From: an uncultured Solirubrobacterales bacterium
GTDB lineage: Bacteria > Actinomycetota > Thermoleophilia > Solirubrobacterales > 70-9
Reading direction: 5' to 3'
DNA length: 64,000 bases
Assembly: GCA_963716735.1 (NCBI GenBank)
Contig: OY970321.1
Location: 2,210,021-2,274,020 of the forward strand
Both the position numbers and the translations under genes were made by a program. The notes beneath the pieces are model-generated. The model saw only the letters and a program-made list of their open reading frames with translations, was not told the DNA's origin and made no database searches. Of the stretch, positions 17,304-46,008 are shown in pieces; the first letter of the stretch is position 1; every line of letters starts with the position of its first letter.

Positions 17304-17305
17304 CG

Positions 17306-24055: not shown

Positions 24056-25228
24056 CTATGGGGCGGCGGTGACCGCGGCGGCCTCATGGGCGTGCCTCGA
24101 AACCGACTCGATCACCCGATCGATGCGCTCTTCGCCCATGCCCGACCACAGTGGCAATCTCAGCAGGCGAGCACTCGCCGAGGGCGCGACCTCGATCGGC
24201 CCGGCGGCGCGCCCGAATCGACGACCGGCCGGTGACTCATGCAGAGGGCTGTAATGAAACACGCTCTTGATGCCGTCCCTGTCCAGGCGCTCGATCAGCT
24301 CGTCCCGAGCGGAAGCGCTTGGCATCAGCAGGTGATAGAGATGACCACTGTGCTCACATCCATCGGGAACGAAAGGACGCCGCAGAGCACCCTCCTCCTC
24401 CAGATCCGCGAAGGCATCGTGGTAGCGGTCCCAGGTCCCCCGTCGCTCCGCGGTTATCTCATCTAGTCGCTCGAGTTGTGCCCATAGAAACGCCGCACCG
24501 ACCTCGCTCATGAGGTATGAGGACCCCAGGTCCTGCCAGGTGTACTTGTCTACCTCTCCTCGGAAGAACCGGGATCTGTCGGTGCCCTTCTCCTGAACGA
24601 CCTCCGCCCGGTCGATCAAGGTCGGATCGTTTATCGCCAGCGCTCCACCCTCACCGCAGTGAACGTTCTTGGTCTCATGAAAACTGAACGTCGACAGGTG
24701 CCCGATCGATCCGAGCGGGCGCTCGCGCCAAGTTGCCGGAAGCGAATGAGCCGCATCCTCGATCAGGACGAGATCGTGCTGGTCGACGAGAGACGTGATG
24801 CGGCCCATGTCGCAGGCGATCCCGCCGTAGTGGACGACCACGATGGCCCGGGTGCGTGGGGTGATGGCGGCCGCTGCTGCGTCGGGATCGATGTTGAGGG
24901 TCTCTGGCTCGGAATCGACGAAGACGGGTACCGCTCCCCTAAGCGCAAAAGCGTTGGCGGTGGAGACGAAAGTGAAGGACGGCATGACGACCTCGTCCCC
25001 GGGTCCGAGTCCGGCGAGGATGCCCGTCATCTCCAGGGCTGCGGTGCACGAGGGAGTGATCAGGGCACGATCCGCACCCAGGCGGCGCTCGAGCGAAGCG
25101 CAGCAGCGCACGGCGAACTCTCCGTTCCCAGAGAGCTTTCCGCTCAATAGAGCCTCGTCGATGTAGGCGTGCTCATTGCCGGCGAGGCGAGGCCGGTTGA
25201 ATGGAATCGCCTCGTTCATCGGAGGCAT
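24056..25228 (-). CDS. wecE: dTDP-4-amino-4,6-dideoxyhexose (Fuc4N/Qui4N) aminotransferase, DegT/WecE family
   Basis: Collinear with my recollection of E. coli WecE: IPFNRP...TPSCTAALEM...MPSFTFVSTANAF...FSFHETKN (PLP Lys)...EKGTDRSRFFRGEVDKYTWQDLGSSYLMSE...LLRLPLW. The start is taken at ATG 25228 (MPPMNEAIPFN); ATG 25252 is an alternative. Confidence 0.88.
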   Translation of the reverse strand: MPPMNEAIPFNRPRLAGNEHAYIDEALLSGKLSGNGEFAVRCCASLERRLGADRALITPSCTAALEMTGILAGLGPGDEVVMPSFTFVSTANAFALRGAVPVFVDSEPETLNIDPDAAAAAITPRTRAIVVVHYGGIACDMGRITSLVDQHDLVLIEDAAHSLPATWRERPLGSIGHLSTFSFHETKNVHCGEGGALAINDPTLIDRAEVVQEKGTDRSRFFRGEVDKYTWQDLGSSYLMSEVGAAFLWAQLERLDEITAERRGTWDRYHDAFADLEEEGALRRPFVPDGCEHSGHLYHLLMPSASARDELIERLDRDGIKSVFHYSPLHESPAGRRFGRAAGPIEVAPSASARLLRLPLWSGMGEERIDRVIESVSRHAHEAAAVTAAP

Positions 25229-25250
25229 CGTATTGCCGCTGCGCTCTAGC

Positions 25251-26255
25251 ATGTCGCCGATGGGTCCCTACGACGCACGCCGGGCGGCATCCGGCGCCGA
25301 AGCAGACCCTGCACTGAGCATCGTGATTCCTCTTTACCGGGACGAGGCAGCCGTTGCGGAGATCTTTCGTCGCTGTCAGCCGGTGCTCGATCAGGTCGGC
25401 GGCGAGCTGATTCTTGTCGACGACGGCGGTCTCGATGAGACGTCCCCCCGCGCTCGGGCGTTGGCGGAGACGTATCCGCACCCAGTGGTCGTCGTGCGGC
25501 TTGCGCGGAACTTCGGTCAGCACCCCGCGGTCTTCGCCGGACTCGCACACGCCTCCGGCAGGTGCGTCGTAACTCTGGACAGCGACCTGCAGTACCCGCC
25601 CGAGGAGATCATGACTTTGCTTGCCGAGTTGTCGGATGCGTACCCGGTGGTTTCGGGATACAGACAGGATCGACAGGATCCGTTGCCGCGACGGCTGGTG
25701 ACGCGCCTGCTGACGGGTTGGCTGAACAGGCGCACCGGGACCGATCTCAACGACTTCGGATCGATGTTCAGGGTCTACGACCGGGCGACCGTCGACCTGA
25801 TGCTCGAATTCACCGAGAGGCATCGGTACGTCCCGGCGATAGTCGCCTGGCTCGGTGTTCCCATAAAAGAGGTGCCGATCGAGCACCATGCGCGAGGAGA
25901 CCAGGGCTCTCGCTATCGGCTCTCGACTCTGCTCGATCTGCTCCTCGATCTGATCACCGGATACTCGGTGTTCCCCCTCCGCCTACTCACCGGCGTCGGC
26001 CTTGTCGCGTCTCTTGCCGGGTTTCTCGGTACCGTCTTCTTCCTCGTCTACCGCTTGTTTGAGGGCAGCGGCGTGTCCGGAACCGTCTCGGCTTTTGCCC
26101 TCGTCTTTGCGTTGCTCGGCGTTCAGTTGTTGATTACGGCCCTGATAGGGGAGTACGTCGGCCGGGTTTACACCGAGGCGAAGGGGCGCCCCTACTATCT
26201 GGTCCGCGATGTGACTCGGAGTGACAGTCACGTCACTGCGCCAACCCCCTCGTGA
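25251..26255 (+). CDS. GT2 polyprenol-phosphate glycosyltransferase (ArnC/GtrB/CsbB-like, two C-terminal TM helices)
   Basis: LSIVIPLYRDEAAV...LILVDDGGLDET...LARNFGQHPAVFAGL...VTLDSDLQYPPE. C-terminus: FPLRLLTGVGLVASLAGFLGTVFFLVY and AFALVFALLGVQLLITALIGEY. Start ATG 25251, or 25260. Confidence 0.82.
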   Translation: MSPMGPYDARRAASGAEADPALSIVIPLYRDEAAVAEIFRRCQPVLDQVGGELILVDDGGLDETSPRARALAETYPHPVVVVRLARNFGQHPAVFAGLAHASGRCVVTLDSDLQYPPEEIMTLLAELSDAYPVVSGYRQDRQDPLPRRLVTRLLTGWLNRRTGTDLNDFGSMFRVYDRATVDLMLEFTERHRYVPAIVAWLGVPIKEVPIEHHARGDQGSRYRLSTLLDLLLDLITGYSVFPLRLLTGVGLVASLAGFLGTVFFLVYRLFEGSGVSGTVSAFALVFALLGVQLLITALIGEYVGRVYTEAKGRPYYLVRDVTRSDSHVTAPTPS

Positions 26256-26983
26256 CCGAGAGCGCTCTCGACGAAGAGATTGAGCTGCTTCGCTGGGACA
26301 GCGAGCATTTCAGGTTTCCCATTGCACGGGTATGTGACCCCACGGGCCCTGCGCGGATGAGTACAGCGGTTGACGTCGCCGAAAGCCGGGGCGTTCGTTG
26401 TCTCACTGCGCTGGTGAAAGCGGATCGAGTTGATGTCATTACCACCGCTGAGGATCTCGGGTTCCGCTGCTATGACGTCCGGACTGACCTCGACCGGCAA
26501 ATCGATGGTTCGCATGACATGTCGGCTGACCAGGGCCTTCGGCTTGCCACCGAATCTGATCTTCCTCACCTAGAGCCCATCGCGCGGGAGCGGTTCTCCG
26601 CTACTCGATTTGTCAGTGATTCGCACTTCCCGAGTGAGCTTGCAAGGAACCTCTATGTGGAGTGGCTTAGGCGAGGACATCGGGATGCGGGCCGCCGGTT
26701 GATCACGGCGAGCGGGCTGGACGGATTCGTCGTCTGCCGCCTCGATGGCGAAAGTGGGGTCGGTACCATTGAGTTGATCGCCGTGTCAGCGGAAGCAGAG
26801 GGTACGGGGCTCGCCGCGCGACTACTGCATGGAGCCGAGTCGCTCTTTATGGATGCGGGACTCGCGCGCGCTCATGTGGTGACCCAGGGACGTAATCTGT
26901 CGGCACAGAGGCTGTACCAGCGCCACGGCTATCGCACTGGAGACGTAAGCCTGTGGCTTCACCGGTGGGCGCCTAGCCGCTGA
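26252..26983 (+). CDS. wecD: dTDP-4-amino-4,6-dideoxyhexose N-acetyltransferase (WecD-like two-domain GNAT)
   Basis: Architecture and motifs parallel my recollection of E. coli WecD. LRWDSEHFRFPIARV matches LTWENAFFG. RFVSDSHFPSELARNLYVEWLRRG matches RFRAPWY...YAQWIENA. VVTQGRNLSAQRLYQRHGYRTGDVSLWLHRW matches VATQMGNTAALKRYIQSGA...YWLYR. The GTG start overlaps the upstream stop (GTGA). Confidence 0.7.
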   Translation: MTESALDEEIELLRWDSEHFRFPIARVCDPTGPARMSTAVDVAESRGVRCLTALVKADRVDVITTAEDLGFRCYDVRTDLDRQIDGSHDMSADQGLRLATESDLPHLEPIARERFSATRFVSDSHFPSELARNLYVEWLRRGHRDAGRRLITASGLDGFVVCRLDGESGVGTIELIAVSAEAEGTGLAARLLHGAESLFMDAGLARAHVVTQGRNLSAQRLYQRHGYRTGDVSLWLHRWAPSR

Positions 26984-28727
26984 TCGGTTCGGCCCAGTAG
27001 GGGACGGGTCCCCATCGGCTGAGCCGGGTTTCGCACTGCCGCTTCGAGGTGACATGCAAAGCGACCCCCCGAGCGGGGCTGACGAAGTAGACGGGGTGTC
27101 GTCCTTCTCCATACGGAGCGACGAGTTCTCCCAGCTGCGTGATTCCACGGGTGCCGCAGGCGACGTCTTCGTCGAACGGCGACGCGAAGTCAGGCCTTAT
27201 CGGGCTTTCGTATTCGATCACTCCGCGAAAGTCCCAGGTTTGGGCGAAGACCGGAATCCAGCCTTGCTCCCATCTAGGAGTATCGAAGCCCATGACCCGG
27301 GCGGTCGTGGGTACGTTGCGTAGGCCCTTGCGAAGTCCAGGAAGAGTCCTCTTCTGGATGCTCCATGAAGCAAGCCAGGCGTCCTGGTGTTCGGTGCTTA
27401 CGGCGAGCTGATGCTTTGCCGCGGCAGCGAATACGAGGAGCACGGCGAGGGGTGCAGCCGGAGCCCAGGGAGACCACCGTCGAACCAGCTCATACAGAAG
27501 GCCCAAGACCGCGACGAACGCGAGTACATAGGGAATCGTGCCCGGCAGATTGAGGCGGTTATTGGTGCTGAAGTACTGCAGCAGGTAGGTGTCATTGGCC
27601 GTGAGGAAGATCAGGGAGCATGCGATCGCGGCGACGGCTGCCGCCAGGAGCACAACCCACCACCGGATCAGCCGATGTCTCATGCTTGGAACGGCGAGGG
27701 TCACCGTCGCCGCTGCGAGGACGATGCATCCCAGGGCGATCAGCCCAAAGCGCGGCGCATATAAGTAGCGCCAGCTATCCCATGCACCTTCGACCAGGAC
27801 ACCGGCTCGCGTCACGAGCTGGCCAGTCGTACGTTCGGTCATGAAGGCCGGATCGTTGGTTGGTGCGACCACCAAACGGTAGAAGACGAACGCCATGACC
27901 AAGCCCAGGTCGGCGAGCCAGCGAATGAATGCTTTTCTGCTGCGGAAGATGGCGAGGTACACGGCCCCCTGGACTGCGATGAGCGGGACCGCAATCTCAT
28001 AGGTGGCCATGGCGATCAGGGCGAGCGCGGCCGAAAGACCGTGCAGGGCCCAACTCCGCCGGCCCTCCGGTCGATCCAGGGCCCGGATGGCGATCATCAG
28101 GCTCGCCATCTGAAGCAGGATCACGTACAGGCCGATGGTTGCGATCGGCCACAGTCGACTCGAGTCCGCGCCCGGAAAGAGGATGATCGCGCCGCCGATT
28201 GCCAGGCACCAAAGTCTGGCCAAGCCGGCCCGGCGAGCAACCGCATATGCGATGGCGACGATCGCGAAGAGCAGCACGATCGGAAGAACGTGATACGCCC
28301 ATTTGTGTCCTCCGAAAGCAGACCACTGCCCCGCCTGGTAGAGGCAGGCAAGCTTACGGCCGCCCGGGATCGTTTCCATGCACGTGTTCATCCCCGCCCA
28401 TAGCGACCCCTGTGACTTCTGTTCCGCATACACGGTCCAGTCATCGAGGAACCAGCCTGCCTCGGTCGCATAAGGCAAGTACAGTGCCAGCGTCAGCAAG
28501 AGCAAGCCGAGTAAGCAGGCAAAGTCGGCCAACGAGTACCGTGGCCACCCGCCGTTGCTGGACTCCGTATCCGGGGCCAATGACCTGGTCGTATCGATTT
28601 TTCGAGGAGGCGCTTTGGGGCTGGCTGCCATTGGCCGCATTACGCTACTTGTTGGCTCGGGTCGAGCGATCGCAAGCAGCGCCGGGGCTAGGACTCTGCA
28701 CCAGGCGGCTGCAAGTCGCCGATTCAT
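26973..28727 (-). CDS. Polytopic membrane protein, possible GT-C-type glycosyltransferase (paralog of 2481-4148)
   Basis: 584-aa ORF with more than 10 hydrophobic segments. WFLDDWTVY follows the first TM and IRALDRPEGRR comes later. The C-terminal ~130 aa are soluble. Start uncertain (ATG 28727, 28640 or 28631). Confidence 0.7.
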   Translation of the reverse strand: MNRRLAAAWCRVLAPALLAIARPEPTSSVMRPMAASPKAPPRKIDTTRSLAPDTESSNGGWPRYSLADFACLLGLLLLTLALYLPYATEAGWFLDDWTVYAEQKSQGSLWAGMNTCMETIPGGRKLACLYQAGQWSAFGGHKWAYHVLPIVLLFAIVAIAYAVARRAGLARLWCLAIGGAIILFPGADSSRLWPIATIGLYVILLQMASLMIAIRALDRPEGRRSWALHGLSAALALIAMATYEIAVPLIAVQGAVYLAIFRSRKAFIRWLADLGLVMAFVFYRLVVAPTNDPAFMTERTTGQLVTRAGVLVEGAWDSWRYLYAPRFGLIALGCIVLAAATVTLAVPSMRHRLIRWWVVLLAAAVAAIACSLIFLTANDTYLLQYFSTNNRLNLPGTIPYVLAFVAVLGLLYELVRRWSPWAPAAPLAVLLVFAAAAKHQLAVSTEHQDAWLASWSIQKRTLPGLRKGLRNVPTTARVMGFDTPRWEQGWIPVFAQTWDFRGVIEYESPIRPDFASPFDEDVACGTRGITQLGELVAPYGEGRHPVYFVSPARGVALHVTSKRQCETRLSRWGPVPYWAEPISG

Positions 28728-28740: not shown

Positions 28741-31700
28741 GTGAGTGACGAGCGGACGCCAATCCTCTATCTCGCCCCTTGGGTTGACCTCGGTGGCTCC
28801 GACAGGGGGACGATCGATTGGTTCAAGAACATCGATCTGAGCCGCTGGGCGCCTTCGCTGATTACCACTACTCCCTCGCCCAATCGATGGCTGCACCACG
28901 TCGAACCGTACGCCGAGGAGATCTGGAACCTTCCCGACTTGATGCCGGGTGCCGCCTTTCCCGAGTTCATCCTCGGCTTCATCGAGAGTCGTCAGGTCGG
29001 GGTCGTCCACATCATGAACTCGCGGCTCGGCTACGACCTGCTGCCGGACATGACCTGCCTGCCCGAACCTCCGGCGATCGTCGTCCAGCTGCATGCCGAG
29101 GAACCGAACCAGACCGGCTACGTCCGCTACGTGACGCGCCGCTACGGCAACCTGATCGATTCCTTCTCCGTCGTCAGCGAGAACCTCAAGCAGACGATCG
29201 TCGACTATGAGATCCCGCCCAGCCGGATCGAGGTGATCTATCTGGGCGTCGACAGCCGGGAGGAGTTCGACCCCGAGCGGGTCGAGCCCCTGGAGCTGCC
29301 GGGCAACGGCGCCAGCAGGATCCTCTGGCCCGGTCGCCTGGTCGAGCAGAAGGACCCGATGTTGACCCTCGAGGTCCTCGCTCGGGTTCGGGAGCGGGAC
29401 GAGGATTTCGTTCTCGACGTCGTCGGCGACGGCCACCTGAAGGAGCCTGCTCGTGCCCGGGCCGAGGAGCTCGGCGTCGCTGACGTCATCCAGTGGCACG
29501 CGCCTTCCCAGGACATGGCTCGCTGGTATCGCAGCAGCGACCTGCTGCTGATGACGAGCGTCTACGAGGGTATTCCGCTGGTGATCTACGAGGCCCTGGC
29601 GATGGGCGTCCCGGTTGTCGCGCCGGCCCTGCCGGGCAACGTCGAGTTCATGGATGCCGACAGCGGTGTGCTGGTCGATCCACGCGACGACGTCGATCGC
29701 TACGCCGAGGCGATCGTCTCTCTGCTCGGCGACGATGAGCGGCGGCGGGAGATGGGCGAGCGCTCACGCAAGCGCATGCTCGAGCAGTTCTCCCTGGCGG
29801 AGATGGGGCGCCGCCACGACGCTCTGTACGAGCGCTTGCTGTCGGAACAGACGGCGAGCAGCCGCTGGCGCAACGAGGAGCTGTTCGGCGAAGAGGACCC
29901 CGGGCATCGCGAGCCGAGTAGCGCCCCGCCGGCTCCGCTGAGACTTTCGCGCGACCCGCTGCCGGAGCCCACCGTCGGTGTGATCGTTCCCTGCTACCGG
30001 CACGGAATCTTCCTCGACGCCTGCATCGCCTCGATCAAGGCTCAGACGCTGACTCCGTCGCAGATCGTCGTCGTCGACGACGGCTCTAAGGATGCTGAGA
30101 CCGTTGCGGCGCTCGCTCGCCTCGACGACGACCCCCAGGTGACGGTCCTGCGCCAGCCGCGGAACTCAGGGCCGAGCGCCGCGCGCAACCGGGCGCTCGC
30201 GCAGCTCAAGACCAGCTACTTCCTGCCGATCGACGCCGACGATGAGCTGTTGCCCGATGCGCTGGAGCGCATGCTGGCGCAGTTGGAGGGAGCACCCGAA
30301 GAGGTCGGCTTTGTCTACCCGAATGCGCAGCACGTCGGCAACCAGATGAACTACGTTCAATCGCCGGCCTACAACGTCTGGCTGCTGATGGAGCAGAACT
30401 ACTGCCCGGCGCCGGCGCTGTTCGATCGCCGCCTGTTCGAGGGCACCGGTGTTTCCTATCCGGAGGAGATAGTGGTTGGCCACGAGGACTGGGATCTGAT
30501 CCTCCAGCTGGCGGAAAGGGACGTGCGCGGGATCCCCGCCAACGGGCCCACCTTTCTCTACCGCAAGCAGGGCTTCAGTCGTGTCCACGCCGTCGACTAC
30601 GGACCCGAATCCTTCGAGAAGACGATCGAGCGGCGTCACCCACATCTGTATCTGGACCGCGACGATCTCAAGGCCAAATGGGCGCCGGCGCTGAGCCTCG
30701 TGCTGCTCGACGAGGAGGGGGACACCTGGAAAGCAGACGACCTCTCGGGGTTGACGCGGCAGACCTGCCGGGATTTCGAGCTGCTGGCGGGAACCGATCT
30801 GGGCGGCCGGGTCCGCCTCGTCGAGGGCCCCGGCAAGCTCTCGATCGCTTGGCTGCAAGCGGCGATCGACCGCGCCCGCGGGCGCTGGATCCTGCTTCTG
30901 CCTCACTCCGCTTTCCCGATACTCGAATCGTCCTCCTTCGTCGAGCAGCTCATCCACGCTTTCTCCGCGAACGAGGGTGCCACCGCCATCGTGCTGGCCG
31001 ATTCAACGGAGATCGCCCGCCCGCTCTTCTCGCAGCTCGACAACGCCGAGCGCTTGCGGGCACAGCCGGCGGCGATCGCCTTCGAACGTCCGTTGTGGGG
31101 TCGGGTGCCCGAGATCACCCTCGGCGTCGAGGCATCGTTGTTGGCGGACCTCGTCGTCGGTTTGAGGGTTATCGGCCCGGCACAGTGGCGGGTCGCTCCA
31201 GGCGTTGACGGTGGTGGCCCTTGGAGGCAGCGCGTCGAGCCCGAGGACCACCCCGCGATGATCGACGTCAACGTGCCCGTTCCTGCGGACAAGGCGGATG
31301 CGGCGATGCGGCACATGGTCGCCCACCAGCCGCCGCGGCTGCCCGAGCTGACTCCTGGCACCGTGCGGCGGTGGAAGCAATCGGAGCCCTGGACTCCCCC
31401 TCAGACGCGGTTGCTTTGCCGCCATCTAGACCTGAAGACCGGTTTCCGGATGATCACGCCAGAGCGCAAGCCCCCGTCTGGGTACCGCTTCGAGCGCGTA
31501 CTCGGCTGCACCCAGATCTTTGCTGCCCCAGGCATGAGCCGCTTGGTTCACGCCAACCACAGCTTCGAGCTGACAGATGAGCAGGGCGCGCTACCCGACG
31601 GACAATTCGACATGGGGTACGTGGAGCAGCAGCCGCTGCCGCAGCTCGAGGGGCTGGAGCTGCGGCGAGTGCCGGAGACCGGCCAGGAGATCCTCGTGGC

Positions 31701-32340
31701 CGGTCCCGACGATCCGCTCATCTACAACTCGGAGCAAATTGCGTTCCTGGGCTGGATCGAGGCATGTCCGATCCTCCCGCGTGCGAGCGAGATCATCCAT
31801 ACAGGCCCCTGGGCGGTGGTCGCGCTCCATCGCCGGGTCAACCGCGCGGTGTGGAAGCACAGCTATCGTGCCGACTCGCCGCTGCGGGCGGAGGGGGAGG
31901 GAATCGCGCTGGGCTTGCTTCAGCGCCACGCCGGTCCCGGGGCGGTTGCGCTCCGACTTCGGTCCGACGGCCGCCTCGCCAGCGAGCTCGTCAACCCGGG
32001 ACGCGCCAGCCGTGACCCGCGCAAGATCGGGCGTTGGGTCGCAGAGCCGCTGCACGCAGAGGATGCTGGACATCGAGCTGTCGGCGCCGGATCACGTCTG
32101 CGCCACCTCGCGAGCAACTTTCGAGGGCGTCGCCTCGCGACGGAGGAGGGCGAGGTTCTCGGCTATCTACGGCGCCAGACCATGTCCGGCTGCAGCACCC
32201 TCTACAGCACGATCCACCCTGTCACCGGCGATCAGCTCGTCACCCGCTTCCCGTCCGAGGCGATAGACGCCGGCTATGTGATGGACGGCATCCTGGGGGC
32301 GATCTTCGATCCGCCCGGCGATTCGACTCGAACTTTCTAG
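28741..32340 (+). CDS. Giant multidomain glycosyltransferase (GT4 + GT2 + ~550-aa C-terminal region of unknown function)
   Basis: GTG 28741. GT4: ILYLAPWVDLGGSDRG...SVYEGIPLVIYEALAMGVPVVAPALPGNVE. GT2: VGVIVPCYRHGIFLDACIASIKAQTL...VVVDDGSKD...PIDADDEL...EDWDL. From about residue 650 I recognise no catalytic motif. Confidence 0.8.
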   Translation: MSDERTPILYLAPWVDLGGSDRGTIDWFKNIDLSRWAPSLITTTPSPNRWLHHVEPYAEEIWNLPDLMPGAAFPEFILGFIESRQVGVVHIMNSRLGYDLLPDMTCLPEPPAIVVQLHAEEPNQTGYVRYVTRRYGNLIDSFSVVSENLKQTIVDYEIPPSRIEVIYLGVDSREEFDPERVEPLELPGNGASRILWPGRLVEQKDPMLTLEVLARVRERDEDFVLDVVGDGHLKEPARARAEELGVADVIQWHAPSQDMARWYRSSDLLLMTSVYEGIPLVIYEALAMGVPVVAPALPGNVEFMDADSGVLVDPRDDVDRYAEAIVSLLGDDERRREMGERSRKRMLEQFSLAEMGRRHDALYERLLSEQTASSRWRNEELFGEEDPGHREPSSAPPAPLRLSRDPLPEPTVGVIVPCYRHGIFLDACIASIKAQTLTPSQIVVVDDGSKDAETVAALARLDDDPQVTVLRQPRNSGPSAARNRALAQLKTSYFLPIDADDELLPDALERMLAQLEGAPEEVGFVYPNAQHVGNQMNYVQSPAYNVWLLMEQNYCPAPALFDRRLFEGTGVSYPEEIVVGHEDWDLILQLAERDVRGIPANGPTFLYRKQGFSRVHAVDYGPESFEKTIERRHPHLYLDRDDLKAKWAPALSLVLLDEEGDTWKADDLSGLTRQTCRDFELLAGTDLGGRVRLVEGPGKLSIAWLQAAIDRARGRWILLLPHSAFPILESSSFVEQLIHAFSANEGATAIVLADSTEIARPLFSQLDNAERLRAQPAAIAFERPLWGRVPEITLGVEASLLADLVVGLRVIGPAQWRVAPGVDGGGPWRQRVEPEDHPAMIDVNVPVPADKADAAMRHMVAHQPPRLPELTPGTVRRWKQSEPWTPPQTRLLCRHLDLKTGFRMITPERKPPSGYRFERVLGCTQIFAAPGMSRLVHANHSFELTDEQGALPDGQFDMGYVEQQPLPQLEGLELRRVPETGQEILVAGPDDPLIYNSEQIAFLGWIEACPILPRASEIIHTGPWAVVALHRRVNRAVWKHSYRADSPLRAEGEGIALGLLQRHAGPGAVALRLRSDGRLASELVNPGRASRDPRKIGRWVAEPLHAEDAGHRAVGAGSRLRHLASNFRGRRLATEEGEVLGYLRRQTMSGCSTLYSTIHPVTGDQLVTRFPSEAIDAGYVMDGILGAIFDPPGDSTRTF

Positions 32341-33632
32341 CTCGAACTCCTCCGCCGACGGAGTGCAGCGCCGGCCTTGCGCATCGGAGCCGTCATTCGC
32401 CAGGAGCGCGATTCGAGTATCTCGGCGAGCGCGGCCGCGGAGTGCTCGTCGGCCGGCGGGTCAGGCGCGCTGCCGCCGCTCAGCGGTGGCGGGCCCGGCA
32501 GGTGACGTCGCCGGTAGCTCGGGGGCAGGCCGAAGCCTCGTTTGCTCCTTTCCACGACCCCTTCGACGGCGGGCTCCAGGTCGGCGCGGCCCGCGGCCCG
32601 GACGGCGTCGAGCACGTCTTCCCAGAGGGTGAGGACGAGGATCTGTTTGGTCTTGAACGTGGCGAGATTCTGCAGGTCGAGGTCAGGCGGGAAGGTTTGA
32701 ATTCCGGAGCGAACGCCGAACGCCTCCAGGGTGATCATGGTCATCAGGCACTTCCGGCAGCGGCCGCAGTTGTAGGCGCTCCCACGGTTCTCCCAGCAGA
32801 CGCGAAGCGTTCGCTGCACCAGCGGGTGGCCGGCGATCCTTTTCGTTCGCTCGGCTCGTGAGTAGCGCCCGCCATCGTCGACGATTTCGAGCTGCTCGCT
32901 GTTCCAGAGGTGGTCGACGAGCCGGGCCGAGCCGATCGGAGGACCGTCGACCTCATGGTCCATGCCGCTGGCGAGCAGCACCCTTTCGAACCTGGGTGCC
33001 AGGAAGTGGGCCACCGCCATGCAGGCGCTGGCGTAGTAGGCATCCCAGAGCACCAACGGGTCGGAGAGCTCCCTCAGGTCGGTTTCGACCACGTGCAGAG
33101 TGAGGCCCAATTCTTCGGCCACCTCACGCACACGTGCTTCGACCTCGGGAGCGACCTCCGCGTGGTGCGTTGCCCCCGGGATCAGATCGAACCCACGGGC
33201 AAAGATGAGGTCGGTGATCTCGGGATGGTCGAGCAGCGTCGACCAGGAGTCGACCCCGCCGCTGAAGAAAGCCGCGACACGACCGGGTTCCCGCGGGGCC
33301 TCAGGCGCACGCGTGGGCGCGATCACCTCCACCTCCTCGAACGGGGGTTCGCCGAACTCCCAATCGAGCGACCAGGCGCGCTGGACCGCCTGGTACTCCC
33401 GCTGAGATCGCAGAACTCTTGGGCTGACCGGCCCAGGCAGCGTGAGGGTGCCACCGAAGCGCATCGCCGGCATCAGGCACGCGGCGAGCGCCGGGTCGGC
33501 GCCGGTGGCGGTCTCGCCACCCTCCGCCCGCATCCGCACGCGCCGGTCGTGTCCGCCCAGCCGCGCGCGGAAGCTGAGCTCGCCCGGCGAGCAGTTCAGC
33601 TCGGTGACCTCGTGATGGTCCGTCGCGGCCAC
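32337..33632 (-). CDS. PP-loop (SGGxDS) ATP-pyrophosphatase-like protein, QueC-like Cys cluster, SWRMTAPMR tail
   Basis: AAFFSGGVDSWSTLL (PP-loop) and VCWENRGSAYNCGRCRKCLMTMITLEAFG (CxxCxxC as in QueC-type enzymes). An N-terminal ~125 aa and a C-terminal Pro-rich linker plus LESRSWRMTAPMRKAGAALRRRR are unassigned. Confidence 0.65.
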   Translation of the reverse strand: MAATDHHEVTELNCSPGELSFRARLGGHDRRVRMRAEGGETATGADPALAACLMPAMRFGGTLTLPGPVSPRVLRSQREYQAVQRAWSLDWEFGEPPFEEVEVIAPTRAPEAPREPGRVAAFFSGGVDSWSTLLDHPEITDLIFARGFDLIPGATHHAEVAPEVEARVREVAEELGLTLHVVETDLRELSDPLVLWDAYYASACMAVAHFLAPRFERVLLASGMDHEVDGPPIGSARLVDHLWNSEQLEIVDDGGRYSRAERTKRIAGHPLVQRTLRVCWENRGSAYNCGRCRKCLMTMITLEAFGVRSGIQTFPPDLDLQNLATFKTKQILVLTLWEDVLDAVRAAGRADLEPAVEGVVERSKRGFGLPPSYRRRHLPGPPPLSGGSAPDPPADEHSAAALAEILESRSWRMTAPMRKAGAALRRRRSSS

Positions 33633-33638: not shown

Positions 33639-35144
33639 TCAGTGCGAGCCCTCGCCGCGCACGATCGCGGCGGGGGTGCGCAGCAGGATCGCCAGGTCGC
33701 CGGCGACGGAGATGTTGTCGAGGTAGTCGCGCTCCATCGCCAGCCGCTCCTCGAAGGTCAGGTCGGCGCGGCCGTATACCTGCATCGGGCCCGTCATCCC
33801 CGGCTTGACCGCGAGCCGGATCCGCTGGCGCTCGTCGTAGAGGGCGACGACCGCTTCCTCCTCCGGCCGCGGGCCGACCAGCGACATGTCGCCGCGCAGG
33901 ACGTTGACGAACTGCGGCAGCTCGTCGAAGCTGAAGCGGCGCAGCATGCGGCCCACACGGGTGACGCGGGGATCGTCGGCGATCTTGAAGGCGGGCTCTT
34001 TGAGCTTCTCGAGGTCGACCAGTTCGCCCAGCTGCTCCTCGGCTCCCTGGACCATCGTGCGGAACTTGAGGACGGTGAAGGGCTTGCCGTCCTTGCCGGC
34101 CCGCCTCTGCCGGAAGAGCACCGGCCGGCCCGAGTCGAGCAGGATCAGCACCGAGCTGACGAGCAGCACGGGGGAGAAGAGCACGAGCAAAAACGCGCTG
34201 ATCGTCACGTCCATGAATCGCTTCAGCGCTTCGGTCGAGCGTGGCGGATCGGAGAAGCGGAAGTCGAGGACTGGTAGCTCGGCGAGCCGGTTCAGCTCGA
34301 TGCCGGGCCCGAGCAGGCCGAAGTGCTGGGGCAGGAAGGTGAGCGCCAGGCCGGCGGCCTTGCACTGCTCGATCAAGCGCTCCGCCGCCGCCTCGCTCAT
34401 CTCCTGCTCGGTCACGATCACTCGCTCGACGTCGTGTTCGCGGGCGACGCGGGAGATGTCGCCGATCGATCCGAGGCGCGGCAGTCCGCCCATCCGGGGT
34501 GCGGCGTCCTCTCCGCGCGGCGTCAGGTAGCCGACCAGGTGCAGCCGGGTCTCCGGGTGGGTGGCGACCCGGCGGGCGACCACGGTGATCGCCGCCGCCG
34601 GCCCGACCACGATCCCGGTCGCGGCCCCGGCCAGGCGGTGCCAGAAGAAGCGCAGGACGGCGCGTGAGGCAAAGGCACCGATCAGCGCGCCCAGGCCGAC
34701 GGCGATCGCGCTGGCCGCCGCCAGTGGCCCTACCGGGCTCAGCGCCAGCAGCCCGTCCAGTGCCAGCGTCCCCAGAGCCGCCGCCGAGATCAGGCTGGAG
34801 AGCTCGTCGAGGGTGCTGTGGCGGATGCGGCGGTGGTCGTTGTCGTAGAGGCCGTGCAGCTTCAGCACGAGGATCCAGACCGGGCTGAACATCGTCGCCC
34901 AGAAGAGCGTGCCGACATCGGTCTCCGGGCTCGCCGCAGTGACGATGCAGAGCGTCGCCACCATGGTCAGCCAGTCGCCGGTTGCCAGCATCCGCCGCAG
35001 CAGCGAGCCACGCCGCCGCGCTCCGCCGGCGCCGGTCAGTCCCAGCCGGGTTGCCGCCTCGGTTCTGCCACCACGCGGGTCCGGCCCTGGCTGTTGTGCC
35101 GGCGAGGTCATACGGGTTGGGGTCTCCTGCGCCTTGCTCGTCAT
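33639..35144 (-). CDS. Polyprenyl-phosphate sugar phosphotransferase (WbaP/WsaP/CpsE-type initiating enzyme)
   Basis: N-terminal TM block, central Rossmann-like region, and a C-terminal bacterial sugar transferase domain. Motifs: LKRFMDVTISAFLLVLFSPVLLV...RRAGKDGKPFTVLKFRTM...DELPQFVNVLRGDMSLVGPRP. The start is taken at ATG 35144 (MTSKAQ); the track start 35189 is TTG. Confidence 0.88.
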   Translation of the reverse strand: MTSKAQETPTRMTSPAQQPGPDPRGGRTEAATRLGLTGAGGARRRGSLLRRMLATGDWLTMVATLCIVTAASPETDVGTLFWATMFSPVWILVLKLHGLYDNDHRRIRHSTLDELSSLISAAALGTLALDGLLALSPVGPLAAASAIAVGLGALIGAFASRAVLRFFWHRLAGAATGIVVGPAAAITVVARRVATHPETRLHLVGYLTPRGEDAAPRMGGLPRLGSIGDISRVAREHDVERVIVTEQEMSEAAAERLIEQCKAAGLALTFLPQHFGLLGPGIELNRLAELPVLDFRFSDPPRSTEALKRFMDVTISAFLLVLFSPVLLVSSVLILLDSGRPVLFRQRRAGKDGKPFTVLKFRTMVQGAEEQLGELVDLEKLKEPAFKIADDPRVTRVGRMLRRFSFDELPQFVNVLRGDMSLVGPRPEEEAVVALYDERQRIRLAVKPGMTGPMQVYGRADLTFEERLAMERDYLDNISVAGDLAILLRTPAAIVRGEGSH

Positions 35145-35151
35145 CGTCGGC

Positions 35152-37167
35152 TCACCCGCAGCTCGGTTTCCCGCGGAGACACTTCTCAAGCGGGTTCAGG
35201 TGTCGTGCCTGTTCCAGATCCGCTTCGGCCGCGGCCTGGTCGCCCGCCTCTTCCTCGACTTTAGAGCGTAGGTAGTAGTACTGCCAGTTGCGGTCCTCGC
35301 GGTCGATGGCTTGCGTTAGGCGTTCGACGGCCACCGGATAATTCCCTTCGCTCTCGGCGATCAGGCCGAGCTGCACGTAGGGAGAGGCGGCGAAGGGCTC
35401 GATCGAGCGCGCCGTCTTGGCGTGGCTGGTGGCGCTGGTGAGGTCGCCGTTTGCGGCGGCGCTCTGACTGGCGTCGAGCTCGCGATCGACGAGCAACGGA
35501 CCGATCAGCGCGATCGCCGCCATCCAGGCGACCGCGAGGCCGGCGACCGCGAGGCCGAAGCGCCGCTCTTCGCCCGCGGCTACGAGGCGGGGGTCGGGAG
35601 GAGCCGCCAGTTGGGCGCACCTGGCCGCCACCAACACCCCCGAGGCGAGGAAGAAGACCACCCCCAGGCCGGCGATCTCCCAGAACCAGTCGAGCCCGGC
35701 GACCACGGCGAAGGCGAGCGTCGCCGCGAGGAGCGCGGCGTAGCGCTCGCGTTGCGGGTGGGGCGCGGCGCGCCAGGCGCTGAACCCGGTCCAGAGCAGA
35801 GTGGCGACCAGCACCAGCACGAGCAGCCCGCCGACGATGCCGAGCTCGGCGAAGGCCTCCAGGTAGAGGGAGTGGGCATCGTGGACCGGCATGTCGATCG
35901 AGCGATGTCGATCCCAGGCGAACACGTAGGTGCCGGCGCCGACCCCGAGCAGCGGCTTTTCGTCGAAGGCATCGATCGCGACGCGGTAGAAGTCGTGACG
36001 GCCGGCCCCGTTGAACTGCGAGAAGTGCTGCTCGGGCTGGTTCGGGAACTGGACGTCGGAGCTGGAGAACTGATCCCAGGCACGACCGCCGATCGCGATC
36101 GCCACCCCGATCGCAATGACCGCCGCCACCGCGGCGACGCCTTTCAGCAGCGACCGGTTGCGCGAGAGATCGACGGCGCGGCCGGTCAACCGCCCTTCTC
36201 GCCGCTCGGCCCAGCGCTGCGCGGCGAAGAGCAGCAGGGTGAGGGCGACCCCCGCGGCGAGGATCAAGAGCACGGTCACGCCCTGGTCCACGGCGGCCTG
36301 GTTGTCGACGTGGTCCGCCAGGCTGTGCCGCGCCTGCACCGCAAGCACCGCCGGTAGTGCGCCCAGGGCCCCGCAGGCCAGGGTCGCAAGCAGCCAGAGG
36401 CGGTCTCGGGAGAGGACGATGAGACAGCCGGCGGCGATCAGCAGGGCCAGCAGCCCACCGCGCGAGTAGGTGAAGTAGAGGGCGAGCATGACCACCGGCA
36501 ACATCCCGGCAGCGAGCCAGCGCAGTCCGCTCCAGGCCGCTCTGCGGCTGCTCCAGAGCAGCAGGGCGATGGCGATCCCGAACATCGCGCCGTTGGCGTT
36601 CCAGTAGCCGAGCGGGTAGCCCAGGCGCGGGCCGGTACCGAATGCGTCGCCGGCCTGCAATACGTGCGGTAGAAGGCGGCTCGCGAGGGCCAGCAGGGCG
36701 ACGAGCGCCAGAGAAATTGCCAAGCCTTCAGCGAAACGTTGGCGCCTTTGGTCGGTTTGGGCGATCAGGAATGCGACTAGGAAGACCCCCAGGTAGACCA
36801 GACCCCGGTCCGCCTCGATCACGCTCAGCTCGGCTGAGCCCGACCAGAGGGATGAAATTGCAGCCAGCAGGGAAAAACCGAGAGTCAGTCCCGTCGCCCA
36901 GTAGAACGGTCGTGCCAGCGTTGCCCGGGAGGCGACGCCGAGCAGGATCAGCGCGACCACGACAAGCCATACGGCAAGGCCCGCAATGTGGCGATCGCTC
37001 ACCTCGAAACCGCCGCCAGCCAGCGCCAGAGCGACGATCAGGACGACTGGCGCAAGTAACGCCGAGCTTTCCTCTAACCTACCGCGCCATGTTTGGGACG
37101 CGCCAAAATCTCGCCCCTCGCCGGGGCGGCCACGTCTTCGCTCTGTCAGTGCTGGCTCTGCTGGCAA
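35152..37167 (-). CDS. O-antigen ligase/polymerase-like (Wzy_C domain) membrane protein with C-terminal TPR repeats
   Basis: More than 10 TM segments. LALYFTYSRGGLLALLIAAGCLIVL (Wzy_C-type SRGG motif) and a large loop with HDAHSLYLEAFAELG. C-terminus: PYVQLGLIAESEGNYPVAVERLTQAIDREDRNWQYYYLRSKVEEEAGDQAAAEADLEQA (TPR-like). The TTG start 37167 is uncertain; it overlaps the divergent gene by 79 nt. Confidence 0.8.
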   Translation of the reverse strand: MPAEPALTERRRGRPGEGRDFGASQTWRGRLEESSALLAPVVLIVALALAGGGFEVSDRHIAGLAVWLVVVALILLGVASRATLARPFYWATGLTLGFSLLAAISSLWSGSAELSVIEADRGLVYLGVFLVAFLIAQTDQRRQRFAEGLAISLALVALLALASRLLPHVLQAGDAFGTGPRLGYPLGYWNANGAMFGIAIALLLWSSRRAAWSGLRWLAAGMLPVVMLALYFTYSRGGLLALLIAAGCLIVLSRDRLWLLATLACGALGALPAVLAVQARHSLADHVDNQAAVDQGVTVLLILAAGVALTLLLFAAQRWAERREGRLTGRAVDLSRNRSLLKGVAAVAAVIAIGVAIAIGGRAWDQFSSSDVQFPNQPEQHFSQFNGAGRHDFYRVAIDAFDEKPLLGVGAGTYVFAWDRHRSIDMPVHDAHSLYLEAFAELGIVGGLLVLVLVATLLWTGFSAWRAAPHPQRERYAALLAATLAFAVVAGLDWFWEIAGLGVVFFLASGVLVAARCAQLAAPPDPRLVAAGEERRFGLAVAGLAVAWMAAIALIGPLLVDRELDASQSAAANGDLTSATSHAKTARSIEPFAASPYVQLGLIAESEGNYPVAVERLTQAIDREDRNWQYYYLRSKVEEEAGDQAAAEADLEQARHLNPLEKCLRGKPSCG

Positions 37168-38850: not shown

Positions 38851-41800
38851 TTGAGCACTCGCCCGAAAGCACGCGTGAAATCTGACCCGCTGGCGCCGTT
38901 CAGCGCTCCGGTCAGGCGCTGGTTCGAGTCGTCCTTCGAGGGGCCGACGCCTGCCCAGGCGGGCGGTTGGGAGGCGATCGCCGGTGGCGCCAACTCGCTG
39001 ATCTGCGCCCCGACCGGCTCCGGCAAGACCTTGGCCGCCTTCCTCTGGGGCATCGACAAGCTCTCCCGGTCACCGGCGCTGGGGCAGGGCGTCAAGGTCG
39101 TCTACGTCTCGCCGCTGAAGGCGCTCTCCTACGACATCGAGCGCAACCTGCGCGCGCCGCTGCGGGGGATCGGGGCCGACATCTCCGTCGGCCTGCGCAC
39201 GGGTGACACCAGCCAGAAAGACCGCCGGGCGATGCGCAAAACGCCGCCCGACATCCTCATCACCACCCCCGAGTCGCTCTACCTGATGCTCTCCTCGGGC
39301 GCCCGCGAGATCCTCACCGGGGTCGAGGCGGTGATCGTCGACGAGATTCATGCGGTGGCCCAGTCCAAGCGGGGGTCGCACCTGGCGTTGACTTTGGAGC
39401 GGTTGGACCATCTGGTGAAGGACCATGCGGGTTCGGCCGCGGGTCCTGTCACGGGGGAGGGGGTGTCCGGGTCTGGGCTGGGTTTTTCGCCTGCTGAGGA
39501 TGCTCCCCTCGCTGAGTCGGATGGGCGAAAAAGAGGACGCCGCCCTGCCCCGGACACCCCCTCCCCCGTGACACCCGCGGGAGGGGCGCAGGGGGTTCAG
39601 CGGATCGGGCTGAGCGCCACCCAGCGGCCGCTTGAGCGGATCGCGAAGTTCCTGGTCGGTCCTAAGAGAGCTTGCGAGATTGTGGATGCGGGGGTGGCTA
39701 AGGAGCTGGACCTCGAGATCGTCGTTCCGGTTGAGGACATGTCGGAACCGGGGGCTCCTAATTTCCCCAACAGCGAGGGCGTTCCCAATGAGGGCGAGCC
39801 CCTGGCCCACGTCCGTTCGATCTGGCCCGCGATCTACCCCGAGCTCCTCAAGCTGGTCAAAGAACACAACTCGACGATCATCTTCGTCAACGCCCGTCGA
39901 GCAGCTGAGCGCCTGGCAAAGCGCCTCAATGAGCTTGCGGCCGAAGAACCGGAGCGTGAGCTACCAGCCACCGAGCAGGTGGGGCACTCCCCTTCCGCGG
40001 GTGGCGTGGGGGATGGGGGGGTCGAGGACGCCCCCGCCCGCAGCGCCCCCCCATCCCCCGCGACAGGACCCGCGGTTGACGGAAATGAGCCCTTGGTGGA
40101 GATCGCCAGGGCGCACCACGGGTCCCTGTCGCACGAAGAGCGCCTTGTGGTCGAGGAGATGCTCAAGTCGGGCCAGCTTCCCTGCCTGGTCGCGACCTCG
40201 TCGCTGGAGTTGGGCATCGACATGGGCGCCGTCGACCTCGTGATCCAGGTCGAGTCGCCGAAGTCGGTCAGCCGCGGGCTGCAACGGGTCGGCCGCGCCG
40301 GTCACTCGCTGGGCGAGGTCTCGCGCGGCCGCATCTTCCCCAAGTTCCGCGCCGACCTGCTCGAGTGCGCCGTCGTCGCGCGGCGGATGCGCGAAGGCGC
40401 GATCGAGGAGACGGTGATCCCGCAGAACCCGCTCGACGTGCTCGCCCAGCACCTGGTCTCGATGGCCGCGTTGGACGAGTGGGAGATCGACGAGGTCGAG
40501 CGCCTCGTCACCGCCACCCAGCCCTTCGGCGAGCTCTCGCGCGAACAGCTGGAGAACGTGCTCGACATGCTCGACGGTCGTTACCCGTCCGACCGCTTCG
40601 CCGAGCTGCGACCGCGGATCGTCTGGGACCGCACCCGCGGCACGATGCACGGCCGCAAAGGTTCCCGCCAGCTCGTCGTCACCAACGCCGGCACGATCCC
40701 CGACCGCGGCCTCTACGGCGTCCACCTGCCCGACGGCCGCCGCGTCGGCGAGCTCGACGAGGAGATGGTCTACGAGGCTCGGGCCGGGCAGACCTTCCTG
40801 CTGGGCGCGACGACCTGGCGGATCGAGGAGATCACCCGCGACCGGGTCATCGTCACGCCCGCGCCCGGCCTGCCGGGGGCGGTGCCGTTCTGGAAGGGCG
40901 ATGGGATCGGCCGCCCGGCCGAGCTGGGGCGGGCGATCGGCGCCTTCTCTCGCGAGGCGGTCTCGCGCGAGCCAAAGGAATTGGCCGCCGAGTACGACCT
41001 CGACCGCCGCGCCGCCGAGAACCTCGTCGCCTATCTGCGCGAGCAGCAGGCGGCCACCCGGGTCGTCCCTTCCGATGAGACGATCGTAGTCGAGCGCTTC
41101 CGCGACGAGATCGGCGACTGGCGCCTCTGCATCCTCTCCCCCTTCGGCGGCCGCGTCCACTCCGCCTGGGGCCTCGCTCTGGGCCAGAAGATCCGCGAGG
41201 AGCACGAGCTGGAGGCGGACGCGATCTGGTCCGACGACGGCATCGTCATCCACCTGCCCGACGCCGACGAGCCGCCGTCCGCCGACCTGGTCATGGTCGA
41301 TCCCGACGAGCTCGAGGACCTGGTCGTGCGCGAGCTCTCCGGCTCGGCCCTGTTCGGCGCCCGCTTCCGCGAGAACGCCTCGCGGTCGCTGCTGATCCCG
41401 CGCGCCTACCCCGGCAAGCGCACGCCGCTCTGGCAGCAGCGCCTCAAGTCACAGAGCCTGCTCGAAGTCGCCCGCGACTTCCCCCGCTTCCCGGTCATCC
41501 TCGAGACCTACCGCGAGTGCCTGCGCGACGTCCTCGACCTGCCCTCGCTGCGCCAGATCCTCACCGACCTGCACTCGCGCAAGCTCGGTCTGGTCGAGGT
41601 CGAGACGCCGACCGCGTCGCCCTTCGCCTCCTCGCTGCTCTTCGACTTCGTCGCCACCTACATGTACGAGGGGGACACGCCGAACGCCGAGCGCCGCGCC
41701 GCCGCGCTCTCCCTCGACCGCGACCTGCTGCGCGAGCTGCTCGGCCAGGAGGAGCTGCGTGAGCTGATCGACCCCGAGGCGCTGGTCGAGGTCGAGGCAC

Positions 41801-45360: not shown

Positions 45361-46008
45361 ATGACCGACTTCGGCACCCTTCGGGCGCAGATGGTCGAGC
45401 GGCAGCTACGGCATCGCGGCATCGGCGACGAGCGCGTGCTGGCTGCGATGGGGGAGGTGCCGCGGGAGCAGTTCGTGCCGGAGCGCTTTCGCAAGCGCGC
45501 TTACTCGGACTCGGCGCTGCCGATCGGCGCGGGCCAGACGATCTCCCAGCCCTGGATCGTCGCCGCGATCTGCCAGGCGCTGGAGTTGAGTGGGAACGAG
45601 CGGGTGCTGGAGATCGGCTCCGGGTCCGGCTACTCGGCCGCGGTCGCCGCCCGCCTTGCCGCGGGCATCGTCGGAGTGGAGCGGCACGAGTCGCTGGCGA
45701 CTGAAGCCCGCCGTGTCCTTGACGTGCTCGGCGTCGAGAACGTCGAGCTGCTCGTCGGCGACGGCAGTCGCGGCGTCCCGGCGCGGGCGCCGTTCGAGGC
45801 GATCGCGGTCCACGCCACCGCGCCGGCACCGCCGCGTACCCTGCTCGGACAGCTCGCCGACGGCGGCCGGCTCGTTGTCCCGATTGCCGGCGATGGTGCC
45901 GATCTGCTGACCGTGTTCCGCCGTCATGGCGGTGAGCTGCGCCGCGAGGAGATCAGCCCCTGCCGCTTCGTCCCGCTGATCGGCGAAGAGGGCTTCAGCC
46001 CGGATTAG
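45361..46008 (+). CDS. pcm: Protein-L-isoaspartate O-methyltransferase
   Basis: ATG 45361. GQTISQPWIVAAICQALEL...VLEIGSGSGYSAAVAARL...RLVVPIG..., 215 aa. Confidence 0.88.
   Translation: MTDFGTLRAQMVERQLRHRGIGDERVLAAMGEVPREQFVPERFRKRAYSDSALPIGAGQTISQPWIVAAICQALELSGNERVLEIGSGSGYSAAVAARLAAGIVGVERHESLATEARRVLDVLGVENVELLVGDGSRGVPARAPFEAIAVHATAPAPPRTLLGQLADGGRLVVPIAGDGADLLTVFRRHGGELRREEISPCRFVPLIGEEGFSPD

Follow-up and report, generated by a model that had tools for sequence, protein, structure and literature searches.

The 64,000-nucleotide window analyzed here, from an uncultured Solirubrobacterales bacterium (NCBI GenBank assembly GCA_963716735.1, contig OY970321.1), carries a glycan biosynthesis locus in which a minus-strand gene at 32337..33632 encodes the 431-residue protein that is the subject of this study (the target). 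On sequence grounds the target belongs to a very large, unannotated family of QueC-like PP-loop proteins, and that family is systematically coupled to polysaccharide pyruvyl transferases (PvTs, PF04230). The gene starts with GTG at 33632 and stops with TAG at 32337-32339; its boundaries were read in the sequence, and its start position is shared with homologues in the alignment. A sequence-only reading of the window had pointed to this open reading frame (ORF) as a PP-loop enzyme lying between a giant glycosyltransferase (GT) and an initiating transferase. That the gene is real is evident from homologues far beyond chance (the closest at 91% identity, E value 8.5e-266, with more than 460 close homologues) and from motif conservation across the family. 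Both of the flanking genes are likewise where that reading placed them. An initiating phosphoglycosyl transferase (PGT, Bac_transf; PF02397, E 4e-62) lies directly upstream at 33639..35189 on the same minus strand, with 6 nt between its stop and the target GTG. A minus-strand gene at 35152..37167, which overlaps the PGT start, encodes a Wzy_C/O-antigen-ligase-like membrane protein with TPR repeats (PF04932, E 1.2e-16), and the Wzy-like, PGT, and target genes form an apparent unit with the Wzy-like gene first. On the other side, a 1199-aa GT4+GT2 glycosyltransferase encoded on the plus strand at 28741..32340 is convergent with the target, and the two stop codons overlap in one shared CTAG. A promoter scan around the target operon returned 0 promoter-like sites, and terminator-like sites around it were no more numerous than shuffled sequence predicts.

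The AlphaFold2 (AF2) model of the target (pLDDT 83.5, pTM 0.82) divides into five regions. The first, a family-specific N-terminal domain (aa 1 to ~110; 33303..33632, minus strand), is modeled as three strands followed by a helix-strand-helix with pLDDT 76-97. It has the near-invariant residues L53, A56, M57, and Q81 and no match in Pfam or PDB searches, and we consider it a candidate module for binding the glycan or the lipid carrier. A QueC-like PP-loop core follows (aa ~115-305; 32718..33290, minus strand), delimited by profile alignment to QueC with hhalign, by Foldseek, and by the AF2 order strand-PP-loop-helix-strand-helix-strand, in which strand 119-122 precedes the PP-loop and helix 127-135 comes next. 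The C-terminal helical subdomain (aa 306-378; 32499..32717, minus strand) has AF2 helices at 320-325, 331-346, and 353-366 with pLDDT 82-95. The remaining two regions are the Pro-rich linker and SWR tail that had been noted from the letters: a disordered linker (aa 379-402; 32427..32498, minus strand) with 7 Pro in 30 residues and pLDDT below 50 at residues 380-402, and a basic tail (aa 403-431, net charge +6; 32340..32426, minus strand) with the motif S-x-S-W-R-x-T-x-P-[LM]-R, modeled as a low-confidence helix. The tail motif, as S-x-S-W-[RK]-x-T-x-P-L-R, recurs in 55 of 125 family ORFs and is also present on PvT fusions. The same motif ends a stand-alone PvT (locus L018, 3-1421) and a probable PvT fragment (L011, 13541-13978). 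Since the motif is common to family and PvT proteins, one might speculate that the tail docks the two partners to each other or to the membrane. An amphipathic, membrane-binding tail was considered and set aside, as the hydrophobic moment (muH 0.35, 85th percentile) indicates only moderate amphipathicity alongside the charge of +6.

A QueC-like PP-loop family

The PP-loop of the target, predicted to bind the pyrophosphate of ATP, is S124-G-G-V-D-S129 (33246..33263, minus strand; identified by conservation and motif scan), about 125 residues from the N-terminus as the sequence-only reading had stated. It stands in the context V119-A-A-F-F-S124, so that AAFFSGGVDS spans residues 120-129 and the loop continues as SGGVDSWS, and a search of all frames showed that no other SGGVDS-type motif occurs in the window. 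The cysteine string singled out in the earlier reading, VCWENRGSAYNCGRCRKC, lies at residues 278-295, and its first spacing, given there as x11, is miscounted: the motif is C279-x9-C289-x2-C292-x2-C295 (32748..32798, minus strand), with W280 directly after the first Cys. Judging from its pattern, this four-Cys knuckle is probably a structural zinc site. Conservation was counted over 123 family domains drawn from 83 loci. Residue 124 is Ser or Thr in all 123 domains, G126 and D128 are each present in 122, and the pattern [ST]-[GA]-G-x-D-[SGA] is found in essentially all of them, so SGGxDS is indeed conserved in homologues. R259 and each of the four cysteines (C279, C289, C292, and C295) are present in 123/123, position 262 is Lys or Arg in 123/123, N288 is kept in 122/123, and K294 in 121/123. 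Between the first and second Cys lie nine residues (x9) in 103 domains and eight (x8) in 3, and an aromatic residue (Trp or Tyr) stands right after the first Cys in 105. The target itself holds every sequence feature of the family: the N-terminal domain, FFSGGVDS, R259, [KR]262, and C-x9-C-G-x-C-x-K-C.

The family is large and almost entirely nameless. An exhaustive profile search returned 7,580 cluster representatives (at 50% identity) at E <= 1e-3 and 2,226 at E <= 1e-30, and the names that its members carry in public sources are "hypothetical protein," apart from one JGI cluster labeled NUDIX pyrophosphatase. Neither the target by itself nor a profile built from its close homologues has a meaningful match among Pfam, NCBIfam, or PDB sequence entries, which bears out the earlier impression of an unusual architecture; matches to a cyclic-nucleotide-gated channel and to FtsY were judged to be chance. 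It is the diverged relatives that place the family. When 79 members sharing 30-40% identity with the target were scanned against Pfam and NCBIfam, Pfam QueC was matched by 36 (E down to 4.3e-7), over profile positions 5-68, which hold the PP-loop, and 152-208, which hold the zinc motif; the class assigned from the letters, a PP-loop enzyme with a QueC-type Cys motif, is therefore right. Weak matches to NCBIfam models were to asparagine synthase (38/79), QatC (17/79), LarE (9/79), and QueC (7/79). DUF6395 (PF19932) was weakly matched by 35 of the 79 over the Cys segment (for example, P0205 265-297 and P0230 267-303) and, to judge from that overlap, may be a sister family with the same metal knuckle; DUF6395 is not mentioned in the literature searched. 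The best PDB sequence match of the family profile was QatC (E 0.0033), which aligns over the FSGGxDSF and CGRCxxC segments only. With hhalign, the family profile matched a shallow, enterobacteria-only QueC profile (Neff 1.4) at Prob 27% and E 6.7e-4. A greedier alignment made residues 115-327 co-linear with E. coli QueC 1-229 and paired C279, C289, C292, and C295 with QueC C188, C197, C200, and C203. The alternation of strands and helices in the AF2 model fits a Rossmann-like fold. Foldseek against the PDB gave probabilities above 0.8 only for the PP-loop enzymes LarE (0.84) and MnmA (0.87), at E 0.02-0.12 and TM ~0.3, and no match with E <1e-3.

How the family relates to characterized PP-loop systems can be read from a 2026 survey of the QueC superfamily, in which canonical QueC carries SGGxDS, C(x)8CxxCxxC, YxQxHxxE, VPxRN, and YPDC, and the Tyr after the first Cys is essential (PMC13329287). 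The target resembles QueC (PF06508/TIGR00364) in having SGGxDS near the start of a co-linear core, in lacking a glutaminase domain, and in its C-terminal Cys-x(8/9)-Cys-x2-Cys-x2-Cys, whose first Cys is followed by an aromatic residue (Y189 in QueC, W280 in the target). It differs in several respects, however. The typical family spacing is x9 where QueC has x8, and YxQxHxxE, VPxRN, and YPDC occur in 0/123, 1/123, and 0/123 family domains, respectively. Since the ATP loop and the putative metal knuckle are kept and the QueC substrate motifs are missing, the substrate pocket of the family would differ from that of QueC. The target also has the additional ~110-aa N-terminal domain, the helical C-terminal subdomain, the linker, and the basic tail, and the QueC models in Pfam and NCBIfam leave it unmatched even at E up to 10. 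Finally, the genomic partners of QueC are QueD and QueE, whereas the family occurs with pyruvyl transferase, GT2, and AsnB genes; no queD, queE, folE, or tgt was found among the scanned window ORFs or the surveyed loci.

The survey describes clusters for QatC, Cap9, LarE, PfkB-linked, WbpG-type (cluster 5), and GMP-synthase proteins, and it makes no mention of pyruvyl or polysaccharide partners (PMC13329287). QatC of the Qat anti-phage system (PDB 9vlk, 9zee) shares with the family FSGGxDSF, CGRCxxC, and an N-terminal extension before the PP-loop, but it is not among the top Foldseek matches of the target, and the context of the family is glycan biosynthesis rather than defense, with no QatA/B/D or CBASS neighbors in the surveyed loci. 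The WbpG/PseA/WbuX enzymes are also PP-loop proteins of surface-glycan loci. WbpG cluster 5 is marked by an SGGxDSxY loop, CxxC(x)6CxC, and a YDC triad (PMC13329287); SGGxDSxY is found in 31/123 family domains, although not in the target, and the WbpG group has its own Cys motif and YDC in another order as well as HisH/HisF-like (WbpH/WbpI) partners. No GATase or His_biosynth domain was found in the subset of about 35 window ORFs scanned. The AsnB family, which includes amidotransferases of glycan or peptidoglycan (the WbpS/LtsA type), adenylates a carboxylate and then forms an amide, and the asparagine synthase model (TIGR01536) is the one matched weakly, and below threshold, over the PP-loop of 38/79 family members. 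In contrast to AsnB, the target has no N-terminal Ntn glutaminase domain and no match to GATase_6/7 or Asn_synthase; AsnB for its part lacks the cysteine knuckle, and the family core is much smaller. With LarE and MnmA the target would share a PP-loop Rossmann core, to judge from Foldseek, but the E values and TM score are poor, there is no tRNA context, and LarE is without the QueC four-Cys zinc motif (PMC13329287); AIRC and Ni_insertion (LarB/LarC) neighbors were absent from the scanned window ORFs. Membership of QueC proper, the WbpG type, LarE, AsnB, and QatC was considered in turn and rejected, as the target misses at least one defining feature of each.

Coupling to polysaccharide pyruvyl transferases

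The association of the family with glycan loci holds in the gene neighborhoods of homologues. We collected 77 loci from species-representative genomes and seven from contig look-ups (numbered with the prefix L), and counts are given for 83 loci; neighbors were counted with local hidden Markov models seeded from Pfam-assigned proteins. The taxa sampled include Thermoleophilia, Chloroflexota, Cyanobacteria, Myxococcota, Gammaproteobacteria, Campylobacterota, Acidobacteriota, Lentisphaerota, Omnitrophota, and Nitrospirota, and two cultured strains are included: Parafrankia colletiae Cc1.17 (L072), which has a PvT-family gene pair, and Aquihabitans daechungensis DSM 27986 (L079), which has a family member. 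A PvT is fused to the family gene in 19 of the 83 loci, fused or within 300 bp in 50, within 3 kb in 55, and anywhere in the fetched flanks in 59. The adjacency counts are lower bounds, as divergent PvTs such as those that Pfam recognized in L058 and L083 may escape the local models. Among the nine long family proteins, six have a PF04230 domain, which may stand on either side of the PP-loop domain, and three have a C-terminal GT2; GT2 is fused to the family gene in 9/83 loci overall. As a control, contact with the PvT was counted for several kinds of ORF in the loci that have one: it is made by 67% of family ORFs, against 29% of GT2 ORFs, 18% of GT4 ORFs, and 0/60 epimerase ORFs. Unfused pairs are co-directional in 40 of 45 cases. 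PvT coupling recurs across many phyla, in >15 sequence clusters with <45% identity between them, and 42 of the 58 members of the sequence cluster to which the target belongs are PvT-coupled. Less frequent neighbors are an initiating transferase, adjacent in 5/83 loci, and an AsnB-type amidotransferase, adjacent in 5/83 and within 10 kb in 10/83; tandem family paralogs, in up to five copies, occur in 30/83.

The window has a PvT of its own at 22637-24022 (minus strand; PF04230, E 3.5e-12), with a GT2 directly downstream at 21686-22612 (minus strand; PF00535, E 2.1e-28). It is most closely related to the PvTs of L047 and L048, two syntenic loci, and next, at E ~1e-55, to PvTs that are fused or adjacent to family members, and in L048 the window GT2 and PvT correspond to one fused protein (14681-16873). 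From these relationships, the window PvT is of the partner subtype and probably the functional partner of the target. No UDP-sugar 6-dehydrogenase catalytic motif was found in any frame of the window, a test at the level of the motif only, which leaves the PvT as the only recognizable enzyme of the window that would install a carboxylate on the glycan. The local arrangement around the target also recurs: the order PGT-family gene is repeated in L047, L048, L084, and L073, the Wzy-like gene is syntenic in L048 and L084, and orthologues of the giant GT adjoin family genes in L047, L048, L008, L038, L017, and L027.

Proposed reaction and its alternatives

Taken together, the evidence makes it likely that the target is an active enzyme of the PP-loop class and that its function is linked to the pyruvylation of glycans. 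Established PP-loop enzymes first adenylate a carboxylate or carbonyl oxygen, and N- or S-transfer follows. Our more specific proposal, made by analogy with these enzymes and offered tentatively, at somewhat under even confidence, is that the target is a stand-alone, ATP-dependent adenylating enzyme that amidates the carboxylate of a ketal pyruvate on a lipid-linked repeat unit. What lends probability to the pyruvate acid as the group amidated is that the family is fused or adjacent to a sugar pyruvyl transferase across many phyla. In this scheme the PvT would work on the cytoplasmic side of the membrane, using phosphoenolpyruvate (PEP) to attach a ketal pyruvate (1-carboxyethylidene) to one of the sugars in the lipid-linked repeat unit. 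The target, expressed as one unit with the Wzy-like protein and the initiating PGT and acting as partner of the PvT, would then adenylate the free carboxylate of that pyruvate, converting ATP to the acyl-AMP and pyrophosphate. AMP would be displaced by ammonia, or by another amine in some subtypes, and a neutral carboxamide would replace the acidic pyruvate; such a conversion would match the first half-reaction of QueC. QueC itself takes a carboxylate to an amide and on to a nitrile with ATP and free ammonia (PMC13329287), and known ketal pyruvylation is a cytoplasmic reaction, with ATP within reach, in which PEP is the donor and lipid-linked repeat units are modified (PMC6801904). The motif conservation, the remote homology to QueC-like enzymes, the operon position, and the PvT fusions and adjacencies are observed; substrate, nucleophile, product, zinc binding, and site of action are what we infer for the target. 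The AsnB-type neighbors fit amide chemistry, either as suppliers of ammonia or as parallel amidotransferases. The sequence-only reading had proposed three chemistries for the enzyme. Amidation of a pyruvate ketal gains strong if indirect support from the PF04230 fusions and adjacencies; amidation of a uronate loses ground with the lack of a UDP-sugar dehydrogenase motif in the window, and formation of an acetamidino group is unsupported, the WbpG Cys and YDC motifs being present in 0/123 domains.

Several findings weigh against the proposal that the target amidates a ketal pyruvate. Neither the literature searched nor a 2019 review (PMC6801904) describes a pyruvate ketal in amidated form, so the predicted product is unprecedented and uncorroborated, and a search for literature linking a pyruvyl transferase with QueC or a PP-loop protein returned nothing. 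The fetched flanks of 24/83 loci, some of them on short contigs, have no PvT. The locus sample is rich in Solirubrobacterales, and part of the adjacency count therefore reflects shared ancestry. In the window itself the PvT is 8.3 kb from the target rather than adjacent. The homology to QueC is weak (the hhalign probability of 27%, the Foldseek E values of 0.02-0.12, and the lack of a PDB match below 1e-3). The tandem paralogs, in up to five copies, are left unexplained by a simple one-step amidation, and some contexts of the family look non-glycan (L002, L006, and L056); the family gene of L002 has no glycan genes nearby, which is unlike the glycan model.

As an alternative, the same class of enzyme could amidate another carboxylate, carried by a uronate or some other acidic sugar residue in the glycan, and its link to the PvT would then reflect membership in a shared decoration module. 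AsnB-type amidotransferases, of which the WbpS-like ones are thought to amidate acidic sugars, recur beside family genes, pairs of NAD-dependent epimerases/dehydratases are found in many loci, and the loci with no detected PvT would be accommodated. We nevertheless judge this unlikely, since it sits poorly with the direct PvT fusions in both domain orders at 19 loci, with the contact that family genes and no epimerase genes make with the PvT, and with the missing UDP-sugar 6-dehydrogenase motif in the window. The fusions demonstrate coupling and give no order of action, so the target could instead act before the PvT, adenylating a small carboxylic acid to give a donor other than PEP, or an altered enolpyruvyl or acyl group, for a PF04230-like transfer, with a product other than the classical pyruvate ketal. 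The partner PvTs score modestly on PF04230 (E 1e-5 to 1e-14) and the conserved N-terminal domain matches no known family, both of which leave room for such a role. Characterized PF04230 enzymes, however, take PEP directly without an activating partner (PMC6801904), and with no precedent in the literature searched we regard an activating role ahead of the PvT as having a slim chance.

Sulfur transfer of the LarE/MnmA/TtuA kind, with oxygen exchanged for sulfur on an adenylated carboxylate or carbonyl and the Cys cluster binding Fe-S, draws on LarE and MnmA as the Foldseek matches of highest probability, on the weak LarE NCBIfam matches, and on a ThiF-like neighbor in one locus. It strikes us as improbable, given that the Cys pattern is the QueC type, unlike LarE, which has either a three-Cys [4Fe-4S] motif or one sacrificial Cys, and that no LarB/LarC, cysteine desulfurase, or sulfur-carrier genes are present in the scanned window ORFs or in most loci. 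Conversion of an acetamido to an acetamidino group by a WbpG/PseA-type N-acetyl-sugar amidotransferase could find a substrate here, since a DegT aminotransferase and a GNAT are among the products of the locus, so that an N-acetylated amino sugar is probably made, and the P-loop variant of the WbpG cluster, SGGxDSxY, does occur in the family. Yet the order of motifs differs, CxxC(x)6CxC is as absent from the 123 domains as YDC, no WbpG/WbuX-type NCBIfam model is among the matches listed (best 25), the scanned window ORFs include no HisH/HisF-like partner, and the PvT fusions would be left unexplained; we consider this highly improbable. Least credible of all is a true QueC/7-deazaguanine enzyme or a QatC/Cap9-type defense component placed by chance in a glycan locus. 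Two hallmark QueC motifs are present and QatC is the best PDB sequence match, but the QueC models miss the target, the other three QueC motifs are essentially lacking, and the surveyed loci have none of the 7-deazaguanine or Qat/CBASS neighbors.

Pyruvate ketals are a major source of negative charge on bacterial surface glycans, and they serve as recognition epitopes, for example in SLH-domain anchoring and lectin binding. If their carboxylate is amidated as we propose, the result would be a widespread and previously unrecognized editing of glycan charge and antigenicity by means of a sugar decoration, the amidated ketal pyruvate, that was not found in the literature searched. Thousands of "hypothetical" proteins in many phyla (7,580 clusters at 50% identity) would gain a function, and the QueC-like scaffold would extend from nucleobase and protein chemistry to polysaccharides through a branch absent from the superfamily survey (PMC13329287). 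The idea is directly testable in the cultured carriers. A bolder version, which we regard as a long shot, is that the PvT and its family partner install an undescribed class of glycan substituent, a carboxamide that in some lineages could go on to a nitrile through another ATP-dependent step, as in QueC, or be linked to different amines, and that swapped subtypes and tandem paralogs encode different nucleophile specificities for a serotype-like tuning or capping of surface-glycan charge in many phyla.

Other contexts of the family and the surrounding locus

In four loci in which no PvT adjoins the family gene, an AsnB-type amidotransferase is directly upstream of it (L004, 6175-9173; L006, 6349-9281; L061, 2709-7158; and L068, 8103-11149). 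The AsnB and family coding regions overlap in L004 and L006, and the L006 pair lies inside a purine-biosynthesis operon. L002 (8162-12089) and L003 have a family member with 58% identity to the target, placed among ThiF-like, SAM methyltransferase, and Amdase-family genes, and in L056 the family gene adjoins fumarate reductase genes. Because of these non-glycan settings (L002, L006, and L056), the family may not be confined to one substrate. Further fusion partners are NAD-dependent epimerase/RmlD-like and DUF218 (YcdF-like) domains (P0166, 616 aa, and P0357, 615 aa). Tandem arrays of two to five paralogs are found in L046 (426-5458 and 9920-11146), L059 (1767-7452), L020, L022, L023, and L001 (7976-11299), frequently with a PvT-family fusion in the lead and two further copies after it. 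The four Cys are present in every tandem copy and the PP-loop in nearly every one, so the copies look fit for catalysis rather than degenerate.

The rest of the glycan locus in the window comprises a plus-strand Wzt/Wzm ABC transporter with a Wzt_C carbohydrate-binding domain (4042-6248), rhamnose-pathway genes (11528-14452), a GT4+GT2 protein (14997-17549), a methyltransferase (17306-18040), the DegT aminotransferase (24056-25252), a further GT2 (25176-26255), and the GNAT (26252-26983). Wzt/Wzm export (4042-6248) and a Wzy-like/PGT system (33639-37167) are thus both encoded in the window, and their sharing of one region with the rhamnose genes suggests that two routes of glycan assembly coexist there. 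In the giant GT, the GT4 domain covers approximately aa 54-353 and the GT2 domain aa 410-586, and the C-terminal ~600 aa have no Pfam match; this C-terminal half is conserved in the orthologues of L047, L008, L038, L017, and L027. An uncharacterized co-travelling gene, a 584-aa ORF at 26973-28727 (minus strand), has no significant Pfam domain, and its homologues (E 1e-22 to 4e-30) lie near family genes in L034, L038, L017, L048, L084, and L027. Beyond the glycan cluster, the window encodes an Lhr-type helicase of 1569 aa and two large proteins with RTX (HemolysinCabind) repeats (38851-43560, plus strand; 46005-49777, minus strand).

The slot occupied by the target holds a different family gene, 35-37% identical to it, in L047 (1211-2452), L048 (9782-11047), and L084 (9161-11107). 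The flanks of these syntenic loci are much closer to those of the window, with identities of 76-88% for the PGT, 64-79% for the Wzy-like protein, 68-72% for the giant GT, and 60-62% for the PvT, and L008 carries a window-type family gene (73%) in the slot. The pattern is one of paralog replacement in a fixed slot and resembles the swapping of serotype-specific genes.

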